A stretch of 64,000 nucleotides of DNA, taken from positions 80,437 through 144,436 of the forward strand of contig JANLHI010000030.1 of the NCBI GenBank assembly GCA_024654525.1. Direction: 5' to 3'. The stretch is from Patescibacteria group bacterium. GTDB lineage: Bacteria; Patescibacteriota; Minisyncoccia; UBA6257; 2-01-FULL-56-20. The notes under the pieces are model-generated. The model made no database searches, was not told where the DNA came from, and saw only the letters and a list, made by a program, of their open reading frames with translations. A program made the translations under genes and the position numbers. Shown piece by piece: positions 3,131-63,690 of the stretch (the stretch's first letter is position 1; each line of letters begins with the position of its first letter).

Positions 3131-4141
3131 ATGATGTACGATGCAATTAAACGCTTTCACGAACAGTTTGAGTTTCAACCGAAAATAGAAAATGCCAAAG
3201 AGTTGGAGAAATTTCGGCGCATAAAAAAATCGAATTCCCCGCATCAATGGTCGGTGGGATTTGTTGTTGCGGGGATGGGAGGATCCCATCTTGCCGCCGA
3301 TTTACTTCGTGCCATACATCCCGAATATGATATATTGATTCACTCTGATTATGGTTTGCCGAAGGGTGATATTAAAAACAGGCTTATTATTATAAGTTCG
3401 TATTCCGGAAATACCGAAGAGGCAATCAGTGCGTTTGAGGAAGCGCGTAAAAGAAAATTGCCGTGTGCGGCAATTGCCACAGGAGGAAAACTTCTCGAAT
3501 ATGCAAAAAAATCAGGTGTTCCTTATGTCCAACTTCCGGATCTCGGACTTGAGCCTCGCGTAGCGTTGGGTTTGAGTCTCCTCGCGCTTTTTGCTCTTGT
3601 GGGTGCACGGACTGCGCTTCGCACCGCTTCGAAACTTTCGCATATCCTCCGTCCTTCCGTATATGAGTCGCGGGGCAAAAAGTTCTCCACGGTGTTTTTA
3701 GGAAAAGTTCCCATTATATATGCGTCTGCTCGGAATGTTCATATTGCCTATAACTGGAAAATAAAATTTAATGAAACGGGAAAGATTCCTGCATATATGA
3801 ATGTCATTCCGGAATTGAATCATAATGAAATAAACGGATTTGATGTTTCCGAATCTACGCAAGCGCTTTCTCGGCACTTCCACTTCCTTTTCATTACCGA
3901 TGAGTTTGATGACGCGCGAGTGCAAAAGCGGATGCGAATTTTGAAGCGGCTTTACCGCGCAAGAAAATTACAAGTAACCGAAACCGCACTCAAGGGTAAA
4001 AGTTTGCTTGAGAGGGCGATTATTTCACTCATCCTTGCTGATTGGACTGCGTATTATACCGCACTTGGACATGGAGGGAGTCCTGATGGTGTCCCGATAG
4101 TGGATGAGTTCAAAAAACTGATGGAGAGGTCCGATCGATAG
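3131..4141 (+). CDS. bifunctional phosphoglucose/phosphomannose isomerase (SIS domain)
   Basis: 336 aa; SIS-domain motifs (GMGGSHLAADLL, IIISSYSGNTEE) and the C-terminal region of the PGI/PMI family. Confidence 0.7.
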   Translation: MMYDAIKRFHEQFEFQPKIENAKELEKFRRIKKSNSPHQWSVGFVVAGMGGSHLAADLLRAIHPEYDILIHSDYGLPKGDIKNRLIIISSYSGNTEEAISAFEEARKRKLPCAAIATGGKLLEYAKKSGVPYVQLPDLGLEPRVALGLSLLALFALVGARTALRTASKLSHILRPSVYESRGKKFSTVFLGKVPIIYASARNVHIAYNWKIKFNETGKIPAYMNVIPELNHNEINGFDVSESTQALSRHFHFLFITDEFDDARVQKRMRILKRLYRARKLQVTETALKGKSLLERAIISLILADWTAYYTALGHGGSPDGVPIVDEFKKLMERSDR

Positions 4142-4243
4142 CTCGATATTGCATGATATTGTGAGGAGAGTTATAACAGAAGCACCTACGAAGGTGGGTG
4201 TTTCTTAACAATGCGTTGAAGAACGCACAACAAAAGGCGAGTT

Positions 4244-5542
4244 ATGACAGACATCGATTACGGAGTAATCATAAGCGAATTACAAATTCCTTCACGGAGA
4301 GTAACAACATGGGGTGAGTTGTTCGAAAGGAAGGGGGGCGATATCAACCCGGACCAGAGAAAGGAAATCGGTCTGGTTCTTTGGGAATTCTTTGAGGCTC
4401 ATACACTCACAGATATACGGTGGATATGGGCGGAAAAGCTGATGAAAGTCTATCCTCCGGAAATTATGGAAAGATCACTTCTTCTAAAAGTGATCCTCGC
4501 GCTCATGCTGAAATGCCAGGAAAAGGAAATGCCGAAAGCAGTGCGATTCATTGAGTGGTACGTACTTACCAAGGTGGGCTATGAAAGAGGGGCGGTAAGT
4601 GGCTATTGGCTCTCCGGTCAGGGAAGGAGGTTCGAGGATGTAGCGGTGGCGTACCGCTTCCTCTTTTTCCTTATTATTGACCTCCGGAAATTCTTCTGGT
4701 ATTTGCAAATAGAGACAATCTCAAGTCTATTACGAATAGCGCACGAGGCAGTTAAGGTACACCCGGGACTGTATTGGGCGAGTACGGGCCTTCACGCGTA
4801 TTCATTTCTTGTACTTGCGCAATTTATTGGGAAACATGCGCATGATTCTATCTATACCGATGTGGAATGGTTCGCAGTGGAGCGAGTGCTCCGACGCGCC
4901 GTGGCTGTGCATGACCCAAACTATTTAGTGGCGGCGGAGAAATTACTCGCACTGCATACTGAGGGGTCCGAGGAAAAGCGGATACGTCAGCGATACGAAG
5001 CAGACTCGTGTTCCCTCGCGGAAAGGATTGCGAGGATTCGGACAAGTGTGGAGATTTTGAGAGTCGCCGACGCAGAATGTAAAGGGTTGGAAAATAATCT
5101 CTCCACAATGGCACGCGAGTTGAAGAAAAGAAAGGAATTCGTTGGAGAAATCACAATAAGTCTTCGATTTGTGGCTCAAGGGGATGGGACGATGACACTC
5201 GTTGCGGGTCTCACAAGTACCGACATACGGGATTCCATTGATGTGTCCTGGAAAGTTTCGCGATTGGCGCTCGGAGGCGCTGTCTTCTCGGAATCATACA
5301 GTTATCAGCATTCCAGAGTTCCCATGCTCGTTCGTGATAGCGGGGAAAAAACTGGTATGGCTGTGGGTTCAATTGACCCCGATCGGCGCATTAGTGCGTT
5401 TCCGCCAGTGTCGTGGCGCGTATTCGGAGTAAGTTGCGATGTGCAGATCGAGTTCTCGTTGAACGGCATAAATTCGGGAAAAATTAGACGCATTCTTGAT
5501 GCCACGCCGGGCACGGAAGTTGTGCTTATCGGAAGTGCCTAA
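4244..5542 (+). CDS. hypothetical protein (432 aa; helical N-terminal two-thirds plus a beta-rich C-terminal third); GC-rich relative to its neighbours
   Basis: Long ORF with a purine-rich patch (aaaaggcgag) upstream; no recognisable family motif; followed by the terminator at 5562..5595. Confidence 0.5.
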   Translation: MTDIDYGVIISELQIPSRRVTTWGELFERKGGDINPDQRKEIGLVLWEFFEAHTLTDIRWIWAEKLMKVYPPEIMERSLLLKVILALMLKCQEKEMPKAVRFIEWYVLTKVGYERGAVSGYWLSGQGRRFEDVAVAYRFLFFLIIDLRKFFWYLQIETISSLLRIAHEAVKVHPGLYWASTGLHAYSFLVLAQFIGKHAHDSIYTDVEWFAVERVLRRAVAVHDPNYLVAAEKLLALHTEGSEEKRIRQRYEADSCSLAERIARIRTSVEILRVADAECKGLENNLSTMARELKKRKEFVGEITISLRFVAQGDGTMTLVAGLTSTDIRDSIDVSWKVSRLALGGAVFSESYSYQHSRVPMLVRDSGEKTGMAVGSIDPDRRISAFPPVSWRVFGVSCDVQIEFSLNGINSGKIRRILDATPGTEVVLIGSA

Positions 5543-5561
5543 AGGGCATGAAAAAAACACG

Positions 5562-5595
5562 AGGCGCGGACAAACATCCGCGCCTTTCGATTTTC
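5562..5595 (+). terminator. rho-independent terminator
   Basis: aggcgcgg / ccgcgcct 8-bp GC stem with a caaacat loop, followed by ttcgattttc. Confidence 0.65.
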
Positions 5596-5847
5596 TGGTG
5601 GGATTGGGGATATAACGTCTCAGACATACATGTAAAACTTTAAGGGAGGAGTGTGAATATTACAGATATCGCGAACGGGCGAGTATACCGGGCAAAGAAA
5701 TACTCGTACCAAGCAAGGAAACAGTGAGGGAAACAATAACGGAAAAGAAGATAGTGGCGGTGATGGAAGAGTCTCAAAGAAGGACTCCAAAAAAAGAGGA
5801 GACTGACCCTGCGATGCGGGGTCTTGCTATTCTGATATAGTGAAAGT

Positions 5848-6279
5848 GTGCTACAGACAAAAAAGCAAAAAACAGTTCAATGGACGAATCATGCCCACAG
5901 TAAGATGCGGTATTATGGGCTTTCCGAACAGCGCGTGCGCAGGGTACTCCACTCGCCAAAGCGTGTGGAAGAGGGGATTGCGCCGAAGACTGTGGCGATG
6001 ATGCAACCTTTTTCGATATTACGAATTAAAGATCGGGGGATATGGAAAGAGCAATGGAAGCAGGAGTTGTGGGTAATGATTCAGGATGGGGGAAATATTC
6101 GAAAAATTATCAGTGCGTGGAGATATCCGGGAATGACAAAACCGGGAACCGCGCTTCCAGATGAAGTGCTTCGAGAGATTCGTGCAGGAGTTGCCCTCTC
6201 GCGTGAATCTGTTGAGACCGAGGAAGAGGTGCGGGAAAAAATGACAGGAATGTTGAGAAAGTGGAGAAGGAAATTGTAG
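5848..6279 (+). CDS. DUF4258-like protein (RelE-fold toxin-like N-terminus with a roughly 60-aa C-terminal extension)
   Basis: N-terminus TVQWTNHAHSKMRYYGLSEQRVRRVL fits the DUF4258 pattern T.HA..RM..RGI....V..VL; GC-rich like the preceding gene. Confidence 0.4.
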   Translation: MLQTKKQKTVQWTNHAHSKMRYYGLSEQRVRRVLHSPKRVEEGIAPKTVAMMQPFSILRIKDRGIWKEQWKQELWVMIQDGGNIRKIISAWRYPGMTKPGTALPDEVLREIRAGVALSRESVETEEEVREKMTGMLRKWRRKL

Positions 6280-6350
6280 AAAATAGAAACAAGAACATAA
6301 ATTGTATTTGTTTTATAATTCGGTATTGTTAGCGTATAATTTCGCTACCT

Positions 6351-6797
6351 ATGCTTATCATAAGCCCCTCATTTAAAAACGGAGAACCGATTCCAAAAAA
6401 GTTTACGTGCGATGGATGGGATATAAATCCCGAGCTTCAGCTCCATAACGTGCCCGCCAGCGCGGCGACTCTTGCGCTTATTATGGATGACCCCGATGCA
6501 ATCGGAGGGAAGACCTTTGTTCACTGGATTGTGTGGAATATCAAGCCGGAAACCGAATACATCAAAGAGGAAAGCAAGCCATCGGGGAGTGTCGAAGGAC
6601 TGAATTCCGCAAATCAAATTGGATATATTGGACCGTGTCCTCCGGAAGGGACACCGCATCGTTATTTTTTCAAAATCTATGCGTTGGATGTGAGATTCGA
6701 TATTACACAAGGGTCGATGCGTGATGAATTCGAAAGGGTTATACAAGGGCATGTGCTTGAAGAAGCGGAAGTCATGGGAACGTATGTGCGAGAGTGA
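6351..6797 (+). CDS. YbhB/YbcL family phosphatidylethanolamine-binding (PEBP / Raf kinase inhibitor-like) protein
   Basis: 148 aa; IGYIGPCPPEGTPHRYFFKIYALD is the canonical bacterial PEBP motif. Confidence 0.85.
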   Translation: MLIISPSFKNGEPIPKKFTCDGWDINPELQLHNVPASAATLALIMDDPDAIGGKTFVHWIVWNIKPETEYIKEESKPSGSVEGLNSANQIGYIGPCPPEGTPHRYFFKIYALDVRFDITQGSMRDEFERVIQGHVLEEAEVMGTYVRE

Positions 6798-10008: not shown

Positions 10009-11346
10009 ATGATAGATTTGACACAATGGGTGAACCCCAAAACGAAAAGGACAATTCCGCTCTGCGGAAACGTGGTCCCGCGGAGCGAATTCCGCATGCC
10101 GTGCGAGCCGCTAAAAATCGGGATAGAGCTTGAGCTTCTTGTGCGCGACAAAAAGATGAATTCAGCGGGAATGCGGGCGCAGGAGGTATTCACGTCGGAC
10201 GCGGTGAGTCTCGACGGGAAAATCTCGGTAGAGGCTCTGGTGGATATAGTAGAGGTAAAGACCGACCCACACGCGGGAATTGCACAAGTCGTTCGTGACC
10301 TGCAAGGAACATGCGACGTACTCCAAAATTACTTTGCGAACGAGGGGTGCGCGTTGCTCCCTATTTCGCTCGCACCGCTTGAAGTAATTGGAACACCAAG
10401 TTTTAACCACTGTTTCATAAAGGAAATCGGGGTGAGAAAACATGGCGTGGGGGTATGCCGACTCGATGGTATCGCGAGTACGCAGTTCAATATCGACGTG
10501 GGGGAGGGCAATGCCTTGCTCTACGTCCATAAAGCGTTTCGCGGAATCGTGCCGCTTCTCGTATCACTCACCGCGAACTCGCCTTTCCACGGAGCGCTCA
10601 ACACGCACATGCTCGCGATGCGGGCAAACGTGCGAAGTATGCTCTTGGACTCCGGGGGGTGGATGGCGGAGAATATACACGAGACCGATTGGGCGGAATA
10701 CTTGGAACGGCGGGCGAGAATGTGCTCAATCGGGGCGGTAATGTCTGCGCCGTGGGCGCACAACGGACCGCTTCGGCTTCGGCCGGATAAGGGAATGTGC
10801 CTTGAAATTTCGCCGTGCGAAGTTATCCCGAGGTTTCGGGGTATCGGTACGATGGCGGATTTCTTAAGGAGGGTGGTGTTGGAACTCTTACAGTGCTACA
10901 TCTCGGGCGAGCCTCTCCCTGAATTCTTCGGCGCGAGCGAAGACCTCGCGGTGCAAAAGAATATGCAGGAATCGGTAATTAGGGGGCGGAATGGTACATT
11001 TCTCAATCGCAGTCTCGAAGGCGTATCGACGAGATATGCCCTTGAGCAACTCGTCGAGTGGGTGGACTCATTCAGTGCAAGGAAAGAAGCGAATGGAGAC
11101 CCCTCGTGGCAATGGAGCGAAACGGTTAACGCACTTTGGGACATCCTGGAGAACGGAACGCCCGCGGAACGAATGGTCGCGGAGTTTCAGAGGATCCACG
11201 ATTGTCCCAACCGCTTGGACGGGTGTCCGGCGTGCGGCGACTCCATTCGCGAAGTGTGTCGGGAAGTAGCGAAAGACTTCGCTGTGCAATTCAGTGGGGA
11301 GGCGCCTTGCGAGCAGGAGTGGAAAACTGAAATGATTGTGGCGTAG
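10009..11346 (+). CDS. carboxylate-amine ligase / glutamate-cysteine ligase family 2 (GCS2, YbdK-like) protein
   Basis: 445 aa; N-terminal LKIGIELELLVRD resembles the GCS2 LGVEEEFLLVD start; strong SD (ggagg) 5 nt before the ATG; noticeably GC-rich (about 55%). Confidence 0.45.
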   Translation: MIDLTQWVNPKTKRTIPLCGNVVPRSEFRMPCEPLKIGIELELLVRDKKMNSAGMRAQEVFTSDAVSLDGKISVEALVDIVEVKTDPHAGIAQVVRDLQGTCDVLQNYFANEGCALLPISLAPLEVIGTPSFNHCFIKEIGVRKHGVGVCRLDGIASTQFNIDVGEGNALLYVHKAFRGIVPLLVSLTANSPFHGALNTHMLAMRANVRSMLLDSGGWMAENIHETDWAEYLERRARMCSIGAVMSAPWAHNGPLRLRPDKGMCLEISPCEVIPRFRGIGTMADFLRRVVLELLQCYISGEPLPEFFGASEDLAVQKNMQESVIRGRNGTFLNRSLEGVSTRYALEQLVEWVDSFSARKEANGDPSWQWSETVNALWDILENGTPAERMVAEFQRIHDCPNRLDGCPACGDSIREVCREVAKDFAVQFSGEAPCEQEWKTEMIVA

Positions 11347-63292: not shown

Positions 63293-63613
63293 ATGAAAAA
63301 ATCAGTATTACAATATGCGCTTTTTGATGCGGGGCTTACTCTCGCATACATTTCCCTTGTCTCTTTTTTTATTGCGAATGGTGAAGCTATTTTCGGCCCG
63401 GGCGGGGGCCAATTCGCCACAATGGCATTCCTTCTCCTCTTTGTCGTATCCGCCGCACTCACGGGACTTTTCGTCTTCGGACGTCCCATTCTTTGGCATG
63501 TACAGGGAGCAACGCATGAAGGGATCACTCTTGCAATTTATACGGTGGTATACCTCGCCATAGCAACACTGCTTGCACTTGGATTTCTTTTTTGGATTCT
63601 GCACTCTGCTTGA
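63293..63613 (+). CDS. hypothetical small membrane protein
   Basis: Three predicted TM helices; the start was set at the internal Met (the ORF track starts at 63257). Confidence 0.4.
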
Positions 63614-63690
63614 CTTTGGTGAGAAAATTGGTGATAATTGCACCTGCGGTGCCCACGGGGCCGCTTTTCTTTTATTCAACCATCACCCAT

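Follow-up and report, generated by a model that had tools for sequence, protein, structure and literature searches.

A toxin-fold core gene and a rare orphan gene adjoin between pgi and a PEBP gene in a Patescibacteria genome

Introduction

Do two neighbouring genes of raised G+C content, one of which resembles a toxin gene, make up an acquired defence module, or do two unrelated genes merely lie side by side? The question arises at positions 4142..6350 of a 64,000-nucleotide stretch of DNA, hereafter the window, from a Patescibacteria group bacterium (GenBank assembly GCA_024654525.1, contig JANLHI010000030.1). Two open reading frames (ORFs) of the + strand, here called ORF432 and ORF143, are found there between the gene pgi/pmi and a gene of the PEBP/YbhB family. 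An earlier reading of the letters alone (the sequence-only reading) had described the interval as a GC-rich, horizontally acquired island, and had proposed that the two products, the smaller of which was regarded as a DUF4258 toxin, might together form a toxin-immunity or defence module. Both ORFs are indeed present, ORF432 at 4244..5542 (432 amino acids, aa) and ORF143 at 5848..6279 (143 aa, GTG start); the corresponding NCBI records are the hypothetical proteins NUV53_03545 and NUV53_03550. The explanation preferred here, to which we assign a probability of roughly 0.72, is that two unrelated things adjoin at this site, namely ORF143, a core gene with a toxin fold, and ORF432, which was inserted into a variable slot next to it.

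ORF143 has a RelE-type fold and is a distant relative of DUF4258

ORF143 is a basic protein (net charge +14) of a BECR/RelE-fold family from Patescibacteria (Paceibacteria/Parcubacteria) that is distantly related to DUF4258 (PF14076). Residues 9-34 read TVQWTNHAHSKMRYYGLSEQRVRRVL, and the N-terminal pattern W-T-x-H-A-x-x-K-M-R-x-Y-x-L-S...V..VL aligns to positions 1-31 of the 71 positions of the DUF4258 profile; however, the match reaches only 15 bits (E 0.032) and stays below the Pfam gathering threshold of 25 bits. DUF4258 is the consistent top Pfam match, likewise sub-threshold, in 98 of 120 family members (best E 9.2e-5). NCBIfam, PADLOC and PHROGs gave no match for ORF143, and neither ORF143 nor ORF432 was matched by the defence hidden Markov models (HMMs) of PADLOC-DB at E <= 1.

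An AlphaFold2 model of ORF143, based on an alignment of 120 sequences, is confident, with a predicted local distance difference test (pLDDT) score of 88.4. It predicts a strand at residues 9-12, two helices (14-23 and 27-35), then six strands that reach residue 94, and a further helix at 105-142, so that a core of residues 9-94 (beta-alpha-alpha plus six strands) is followed by a long basic C-terminal helix. The N-terminal strand, the two helices and the antiparallel sheet agree with those of solved members of the BECR, or RelE-ParE, fold. Foldseek returned nothing significant for the model in the PDB; the closest structural matches are HigB1 and BrnT. Invariant or nearly invariant in the family are W12, T13, H15, K19, R29, P37, R39, E41, E42, G43, Q53, P54, E73, W75 and the stretch S89-A-W-R-Y-P-G95. 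The invariant polar set comprises H15, K19, R39, E41, E42, E73, R92 and Y93, and the last two lie in the final strand, where RelE and YoeB also have catalytic residues. The segment that follows the beta-core had been put at about 60 aa and is in fact about 45 aa long (residues 99-143). Its distal part, residues 117-143 with the motif M..ML.KWRR.L, is common to the closest relatives only, and most family members are just 105-120 aa long and lack this tail. The predicted structure thus supports a RelE/BECR fold for ORF143, and the earlier fold assignment holds at the level of the superfamily but not for DUF4258 proper.

DUF4258 has been described as a BECR family whose function is unknown and whose genes follow an antitoxin/toxin order (PMC11980606), and a 2026 preprint moves it into a colicin-like branch that overlaps Ntox49 (10.64898/2026.08.28.747851). 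Compared with DUF4258, for which fusions to MqsA are also described, ORF143 has a longer beta-sheet, an extra C-terminal helix and no antitoxin, and its family is chromosomal, syntenic, vertically inherited and confined to Patescibacteria. The sequence identity to HigB1/gp49-type proteins and BrnT, which are RNases of type II toxin-antitoxin systems, is 7-14%. These toxins are accompanied by a helix-turn-helix (HTH; HigA) or ribbon-helix-helix (BrnA) antitoxin, whereas ORF143 is followed by a PEBP gene and evolves in the manner of a core gene.

The ORF143 family is inherited vertically in a conserved gene order

At least 1,579 homologs of ORF143 were found, and every named source belongs to the Patescibacteria (Liptonbacteria, Wolfebacteria, Parcubacteria, Paceibacteria). 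The homologs are 50-70% identical to ORF143 across the first ~100 residues, and none of them carries a precomputed Pfam domain. For the comparisons below, 80 loci were used, each from the genome of a different species. The mean pairwise identity of the ORF143 family (0.645) is close to that of pgi (0.62) and PEBP (0.60), and its identity matrix co-varies with both, with a Spearman rho of 0.74 for pgi and a Mantel r of 0.62 for PEBP, a value that none of 300 permutations reached. In 74 of the 80 genomes, the ORF143 homolog is richer in G+C than its own locus, by 4.5 points on average (p = 7e-14); PEBP genes exceed theirs by 2.0 points. Since the excess is a property of the whole family, it is no mark of transfer. 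Collections of phages and plasmids contained no match to the family, and no paralog of ORF143 is present in the window.

The genes around ORF143 follow a conserved order of pgi, a variable slot, ORF143 and PEBP, in which pgi is the upstream anchor. A PEBP gene lies directly 3' of the ORF143 homolog on the same strand in 56/80 loci, and pgi lies 5' on the same strand in 37/80. The distance between pgi and the ORF143 homolog is below 150 bp in 7 loci, in which the two genes directly abut, 400-500 bp in 10 and above 600 bp in 20. Insertions are frequent between pgi and ORF143, and they are rare between ORF143 and PEBP. Measured to the longest plausible PEBP start, the median gap between the latter two is 22 nt, and the genes overlap by 4 nt in eight loci, which suggests an operon, with PEBP as the probable partner of ORF143 family members. 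In a second context, which typifies Wolfebacteria, a divergent gene for a PMT-type glycosyltransferase lies upstream, the genes downstream vary and PEBP is absent. The four closest relatives of the window (L001-L004) share with it genes for an FAD oxidase, YfiH, an acylphosphatase (AcyP) and pgi, then ORF143, PEBP and a racemase, at 50-76% identity; in L003 and L004, this order is perfectly kept outside the slot.

No antitoxin was found for ORF143. None of the small ORFs on either strand of 5540..6300 belongs to a DUF2283-like or any other Pfam family, in agreement with the sequence-only reading, which had noted the lack of a DUF2283-type partner. Across the 80 loci, no conserved small partner gene accompanies the family in either genomic context. 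Rfam gave no structured RNA at E <= 1 in the spacer upstream of ORF143, and repeats typical of RNA antitoxins were not found. ORF143 therefore has neither the adjacent cognate antitoxin (DUF2283-, MqsA- or HTH-type) that goes with DUF4258, nor the two-gene operon and the patchy, mobile, horizontal spread of type II toxin-antitoxin systems. A literature search returned nothing on the ORF143 family or its link to PEBP. The proposed horizontal acquisition of ORF143 is not supported, given identities that track those of pgi and PEBP, the synteny with PEBP and the family-wide GC excess. We conclude that ORF143, although it has a toxin fold, is a core gene that is inherited vertically and lacks an antitoxin, because it evolves as slowly as pgi, keeps its place in a conserved gene order, shares its GC excess with its family and lacks an antitoxin; it is not an island gene.

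What such a gene might do can be proposed from these properties. On the preferred explanation, ORF143 is an ancient, single-copy core gene of Paceibacteria/Parcubacteria whose basic product has the BECR (RelE/ParE-type) fold. Its translation is often coupled to that of PEBP and, in many genomes, also to that of an upstream nuclease gene of the PD-(D/E)XK or PLD type. From the lack of a conserved antitoxin, the pgi-like conservation and the absence from the phage and plasmid sets, we infer that its toxin fold has been domesticated and that it is not the poison of a toxin-antitoxin pair. On the basis of its fold, its positive charge, its invariant polar residues and its evolutionary behaviour, it may be an endoribonuclease that binds RNA or ribosomes and serves RNA turnover or translation control in a housekeeping or regulatory capacity. 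A domesticated endoribonuclease that is co-expressed with PEBP is the most likely identity of ORF143.

ORF432 is a rare orphan in the variable slot

The 432 codons of ORF432 far exceed the longest stop-free run in shuffled sequences (215 codons), which marks it as a real ORF. The protein is predicted to be soluble and to consist of a helical N-terminal part (~295 aa), a stretch resembling a coiled coil and a C-terminal part (~130 aa) rich in beta-strands; its AlphaFold2 model is poor (pLDDT 47). No known family was matched in Pfam, NCBIfam, PADLOC or PHROGs, and sequence matches in the PDB, to nanobody and bZIP sequences, were judged spurious; the description of ORF432 as a protein without recognisable motifs is thereby confirmed. 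Viral contigs, phages and plasmids gave no matches either. A word-indexed search of 5.8e9 clusters found only ORF432 itself, and an exhaustive HMMER search of 1.84e9 representatives yielded P0122, a relative of 401 aa with 31% identity (E 2.8e-15), and a second one, P0123, of 433 aa (E 2e-4). A profile search added no further members, and a metagenome scan returned P0122 alone once more, encoded on L083. The family therefore has three distinct members, which share motifs such as IEWY, P-x-LYW and W..(V/L)ER.LR.

ORF432 and ORF143 do not occur together elsewhere: tblastn detected ORF432 in 0/80 loci of ORF143 homologs, and homologs of ORF143, PEBP and pgi were found in 0/3 loci of the ORF432 relatives. 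The contigs that bear these relatives have a G+C content of 38-41%. The neighbourhood of P0122 (L081:6977-8112 and 10817-11269) includes a Zeta-toxin gene preceded by an ORF of 58 aa, in the manner of an epsilon/zeta pair, as well as a SocA/Panacea-domain gene and a gene for a 1,128-aa LCAT/lipase-like protein, and small hypothetical genes are numerous there. This context hints weakly that ORF432 may have an accessory or conflict role. A search for the boundaries of a mobile element around ORF432 found only short repeats at chance level and no flanking repeats.

The slot often holds a nuclease gene, of which a remnant may persist

Depending on the genome, 0 to 4 genes occupy the slot that separates pgi from the ORF143 homolog. 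Its commonest occupant encodes a protein of ~250 aa with the motifs CPRCFW...CEYCKYRE, which matches PF12705 (PDDEXK_1) at E 1.2e-15 and Cas4 weakly. This PD-(D/E)XK nuclease gene lies 5' of the ORF143 homolog on the same strand in 30/80 loci, and in 12 of these 30 the gap is at most 24 nt, including 4-nt overlaps. In six genomes, its place is taken by a PLD-like nuclease (PF13091), so that two unrelated nuclease types alternate at one position; one or the other is present upstream in 36/80 loci. The PLD-like proteins (L016, 3931-4464; L020, L047, L049, L058 and L070) carry an N-terminal transmembrane or signal segment. The PD-(D/E)XK gene fills the slot in all four closest relatives of the window, L001-L004. 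The window itself has ORF432, its terminator and a 305-bp spacer in this position.

The terminator of ORF432 (5561..5596, + strand and also read on the - strand) was rightly described as strong by the sequence-only reading, which had placed it at 5562..5595. It consists of the inverted repeat I5 with a 10-bp stem (5561..5586; 7 GC pairs), a 6-nt loop and the tail TCGATTTTCT. Since an A-run precedes the stem and a T-run follows it, it should act on both strands.

The spacer contains a 74-codon open frame without a usable start (5613..5839, + strand), in which the 3' end of a gene for a PD-(D/E)XK nuclease (Cas4-like, with a Cys cluster) probably survives. The frame reads ...TLREECEYYRYRERAS...RGLAILI followed by a stop codon, and includes EECEYYRYRE at the position equivalent to the motif of the nucleases in L001-L004; compared with the intact PF12705 nuclease, it is short and startless and has one motif Cys changed to Tyr. 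The frame stops 8 nt before the start of ORF143, exactly where the intact nuclease gene stops in L001 and L004. When the slot nucleases of L001, L003 and L004 were used in tblastn, their best or near-best match in the window was at 5628..5723, in one frame. A Smith-Waterman comparison of the remnant scored 52, against 33.9 +/- 4.3 for shuffled sequences (p ~0.006), and the top four scorers were the four closest relatives. A second terminator-like hairpin lies inside the remnant (5805..5833, + strand, with the stem-loop at 5805..5823); it has an 8-bp stem with 6 GC pairs, reads GACCCTGCGATGCGGGGTC with the tail TTGCTATTCT, and is located 25 nt 5' of the GTG start of ORF143. The stretch from the terminator of ORF432 to ORF143 yielded no sigma-70-like promoter.

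From these alignments, we consider with moderate confidence that the 305-bp spacer is what is left of the 3' end of the nuclease gene. ORF432, which fills the rest of the slot and has no similarity to the PF12705 nuclease, would then, together with its own terminator, be a lineage-specific insertion of a member of the three-member family, with an N-terminal part resembling helical repeats and a beta-rich C-terminal part, and would have replaced most of the nuclease gene.

The composition of the interval does not mark an island

The G+C contents of ORF432 and ORF143 are 49.0% and 48.1%, and that of the whole interval 4142..6350 is 47.3%. The window as a whole has 44.1% and the genes upstream have 43-44%; the claim that both ORFs lie in the mid-50s therefore fails. 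Among sliding windows, the values of the two ORFs and the interval fall into the 94th-97th percentile. At third codon positions (GC3), ORF432 reaches 51% (z 1.7) and ORF143 50% (z 1.5), with a mean of 43% per gene, and the PEBP and Asp/Glu racemase genes downstream show the same mild rise (47%). The Karlin codon bias of ORF432 is not anomalous (85th percentile of length-matched genes), and its pattern of GC1 > GC3 > GC2 is that of the adjoining genes. Sliding-window GC and codon usage, the checks that the sequence-only reading had suggested for its island, thus reveal no more than a small rise. A genomic island should contrast clearly with its host and be absent from relatives. ORF143 does not behave in this way, being present and syntenic in relatives, with a GC excess that is a family trait; ORF432 is absent from them, and shows little compositional contrast and no flanking repeats. 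On the strength of GC, GC3, codon bias and the family-wide excess of ORF143, a horizontally transferred island, as proposed from composition, was rejected.

The real compositional outlier in the first 12 kb of the window is a gene of the GCS2 family (glutamate-cysteine ligase 2-like) at 10009..11346 (+ strand), with 55% GC, a GC3 of 64% and a codon bias B of 0.46; a homolog in L007 (50% identical) adjoins a glutamine-amidotransferase homolog, an arrangement that is also found in the window. The highest codon bias of the window (B 0.66; GC3 58%) belongs to a 123-aa ORF at 63308..63679 (- strand) with the pattern GC1 < GC2 < GC3, which may be spurious or represent an atypical gene.

Flanking genes

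The upstream anchor, pgi/pmi (3131..4141, + strand), encodes a bifunctional-type phosphoglucose isomerase with SIS domains (Pfam bact-PGI_C, E 1.6e-35). The PEBP/YbhB-family gene (6351..6797, + strand; Pfam PBP, E 8.6e-41) is separated from ORF143 by an AT-rich spacer of 71 bp. This spacer contains a promoter-like site at 6312..6340 (+ strand; TTTATA, a 17-nt spacer and TATAAT, 10/12 matches), which ends 10 nt before the ATG of PEBP. No Shine-Dalgarno sequence is evident for this gene, which suggests, as far as the sequence can tell, that its transcript has a very short leader or is leaderless.

The PEBP of the window has no N-terminal extension. In 18 of the 56 neighbouring PEBPs, a possible start lies ~35-50 codons earlier and would add a K/R-rich and then a hydrophobic segment resembling a signal anchor (among them L002, L018, L022, L026, L028, L029, L033, L034, L039, L042, L043, L067, L069, L071, L076, L078 and L079); these early starts shrink the gap to the ORF143 homolog to 0-20 nt or to a 4-nt overlap. 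PEBP is commonly followed by a gene for a sigma-70 factor of the extracytoplasmic function (ECF) type (Sigma70_r2 and r4; L016, L020, L026, L039, L041, L045, L047, L048, L054, L056, L059, L062, L064-L068 and L070), often accompanied by one that encodes a small, ~145-aa membrane protein, possibly an anti-sigma factor. Some other loci have a DoxX/MauE-like membrane protein gene after PEBP, and in the window a gap of ~450 bp is followed by the Asp/Glu racemase gene.

Alternative explanations

Several points weigh against our explanation of an unrelated core gene and insertion. The tight linkage of ORF143 to PEBP may mean that the protein is part of a functional pair, or has a non-canonical neutraliser, and does not act alone. 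The evidence for transfer of ORF432 is slight, given its inconspicuous GC3 and codon bias and the lack of flanking repeats. As to the nuclease remnant, the match spans only ~13-35 residues at p ~0.006, an HMM of the nuclease finds only a weak match in the six-frame translation of 4100..5900, although at the expected site, and no similarity to the relatives is detectable at the DNA level 5' of the ORF143 start.

The earlier idea that ORF432 and ORF143 form a horizontally acquired toxin-immunity or defence module draws on their adjacency on one strand, their shared mild rise in GC, the toxin fold of ORF143 and the Zeta-toxin and SocA/Panacea genes near P0122. It is nevertheless highly improbable: the two families do not co-occur in either direction (0/80 and 0/3 loci), a strong terminator and an apparent nuclease remnant separate the genes, ORF143 is vertically inherited and syntenic with a GC excess intrinsic to its family, and no match was obtained in PADLOC, phages, plasmids or viral contigs. 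ORF143 could instead be an active solitary toxin under the control of an antitoxin that is encoded elsewhere or is not a protein, or of its own C-terminal helix acting in cis. The BECR fold with its invariant H15, K19, R39, E41/E42, E73 and R92-Y93, and the long helix predicted at 105-142, would suit such a toxin, and single-gene toxin-antitoxin fusions exist as a precedent in the superfamily (PMC11980606). However, most members lack the distal tail, neither an Rfam RNA nor repeats of the RNA-antitoxin type were found, and the class-wide vertical conservation in streamlined genomes weighs against a toxin, so that we regard this possibility as unlikely.

PEBP is a scaffold of protein inhibitors in eukaryotes. 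A non-canonical toxin-antitoxin-like or enzyme-inhibitor pair, in which PEBP restrains the BECR RNase, would be conceivable, and it would agree with the same-strand position of PEBP directly 3' of ORF143 in 56/80 loci, the short gaps and overlaps, and the rarity of insertions between the two genes as opposed to their frequency between pgi and ORF143. The toxin-first order is also that of HigBA and BrnTA: HigB1 and BrnT, the best structural matches, belong to toxin-first systems (PMC11980606). Against such a pair stand the signal anchors of 18/56 PEBPs, which put the domain outside the cytoplasm, the 24/80 loci without a nearby PEBP, of which many offered 6 kb of sequence on the downstream side, the AT-rich spacer with its promoter-like site in the window, and a slow vertical evolution unlike that of toxin-antitoxin modules; we consider the pair quite unlikely. 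Unlikely, too, is a broader proposal in which the class-wide, domesticated RNase fold of the ORF143 family, the coupled PEBP and often an upstream PD-(D/E)XK or PLD nuclease constitute a hitherto undescribed module for nucleic-acid processing or salvage, or in which PEBP is a novel type of protein regulator of a toxin-fold RNase. In either form, this proposal, if true, would for the first time place bacterial PEBPs, and a 'toxin' that has become a core gene of ultra-small symbionts, in a functional setting. The juxtaposition of a core toxin-fold gene and an unrelated orphan insertion is therefore retained as the explanation of the locus.

Conclusions

With respect to the original claim, the region is ordinary: the superfamily fold of ORF143, the orphan status of ORF432 and the lack of an antitoxin stand, and the island, the horizontal acquisition and the two-gene module are not supported. 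The ORF143 family and the slot that holds ORF432 are of modest interest. The narrower of the two is ORF432, an orphan in the variable slot of an otherwise rigid syntenic block, where it apparently took the place of a nuclease gene. The family of ORF143 is large (at least 1,579 clusters), falls outside the coverage of Pfam and is kept by streamlined Patescibacteria genomes at the level of conservation of a glycolytic enzyme. Annotation pipelines or motif readers are prone to label such genes as toxins, which inflates the counts of toxin-antitoxin systems in the genomes of candidate phyla. If ORF143 is truly domesticated, it would clearly exemplify how a toxin fold can be recruited for a conserved function in the absence of an antitoxin. 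To our knowledge, the function of bacterial PEBP proteins is still poorly understood, and their linkage to ORF143 provides a testable lead.

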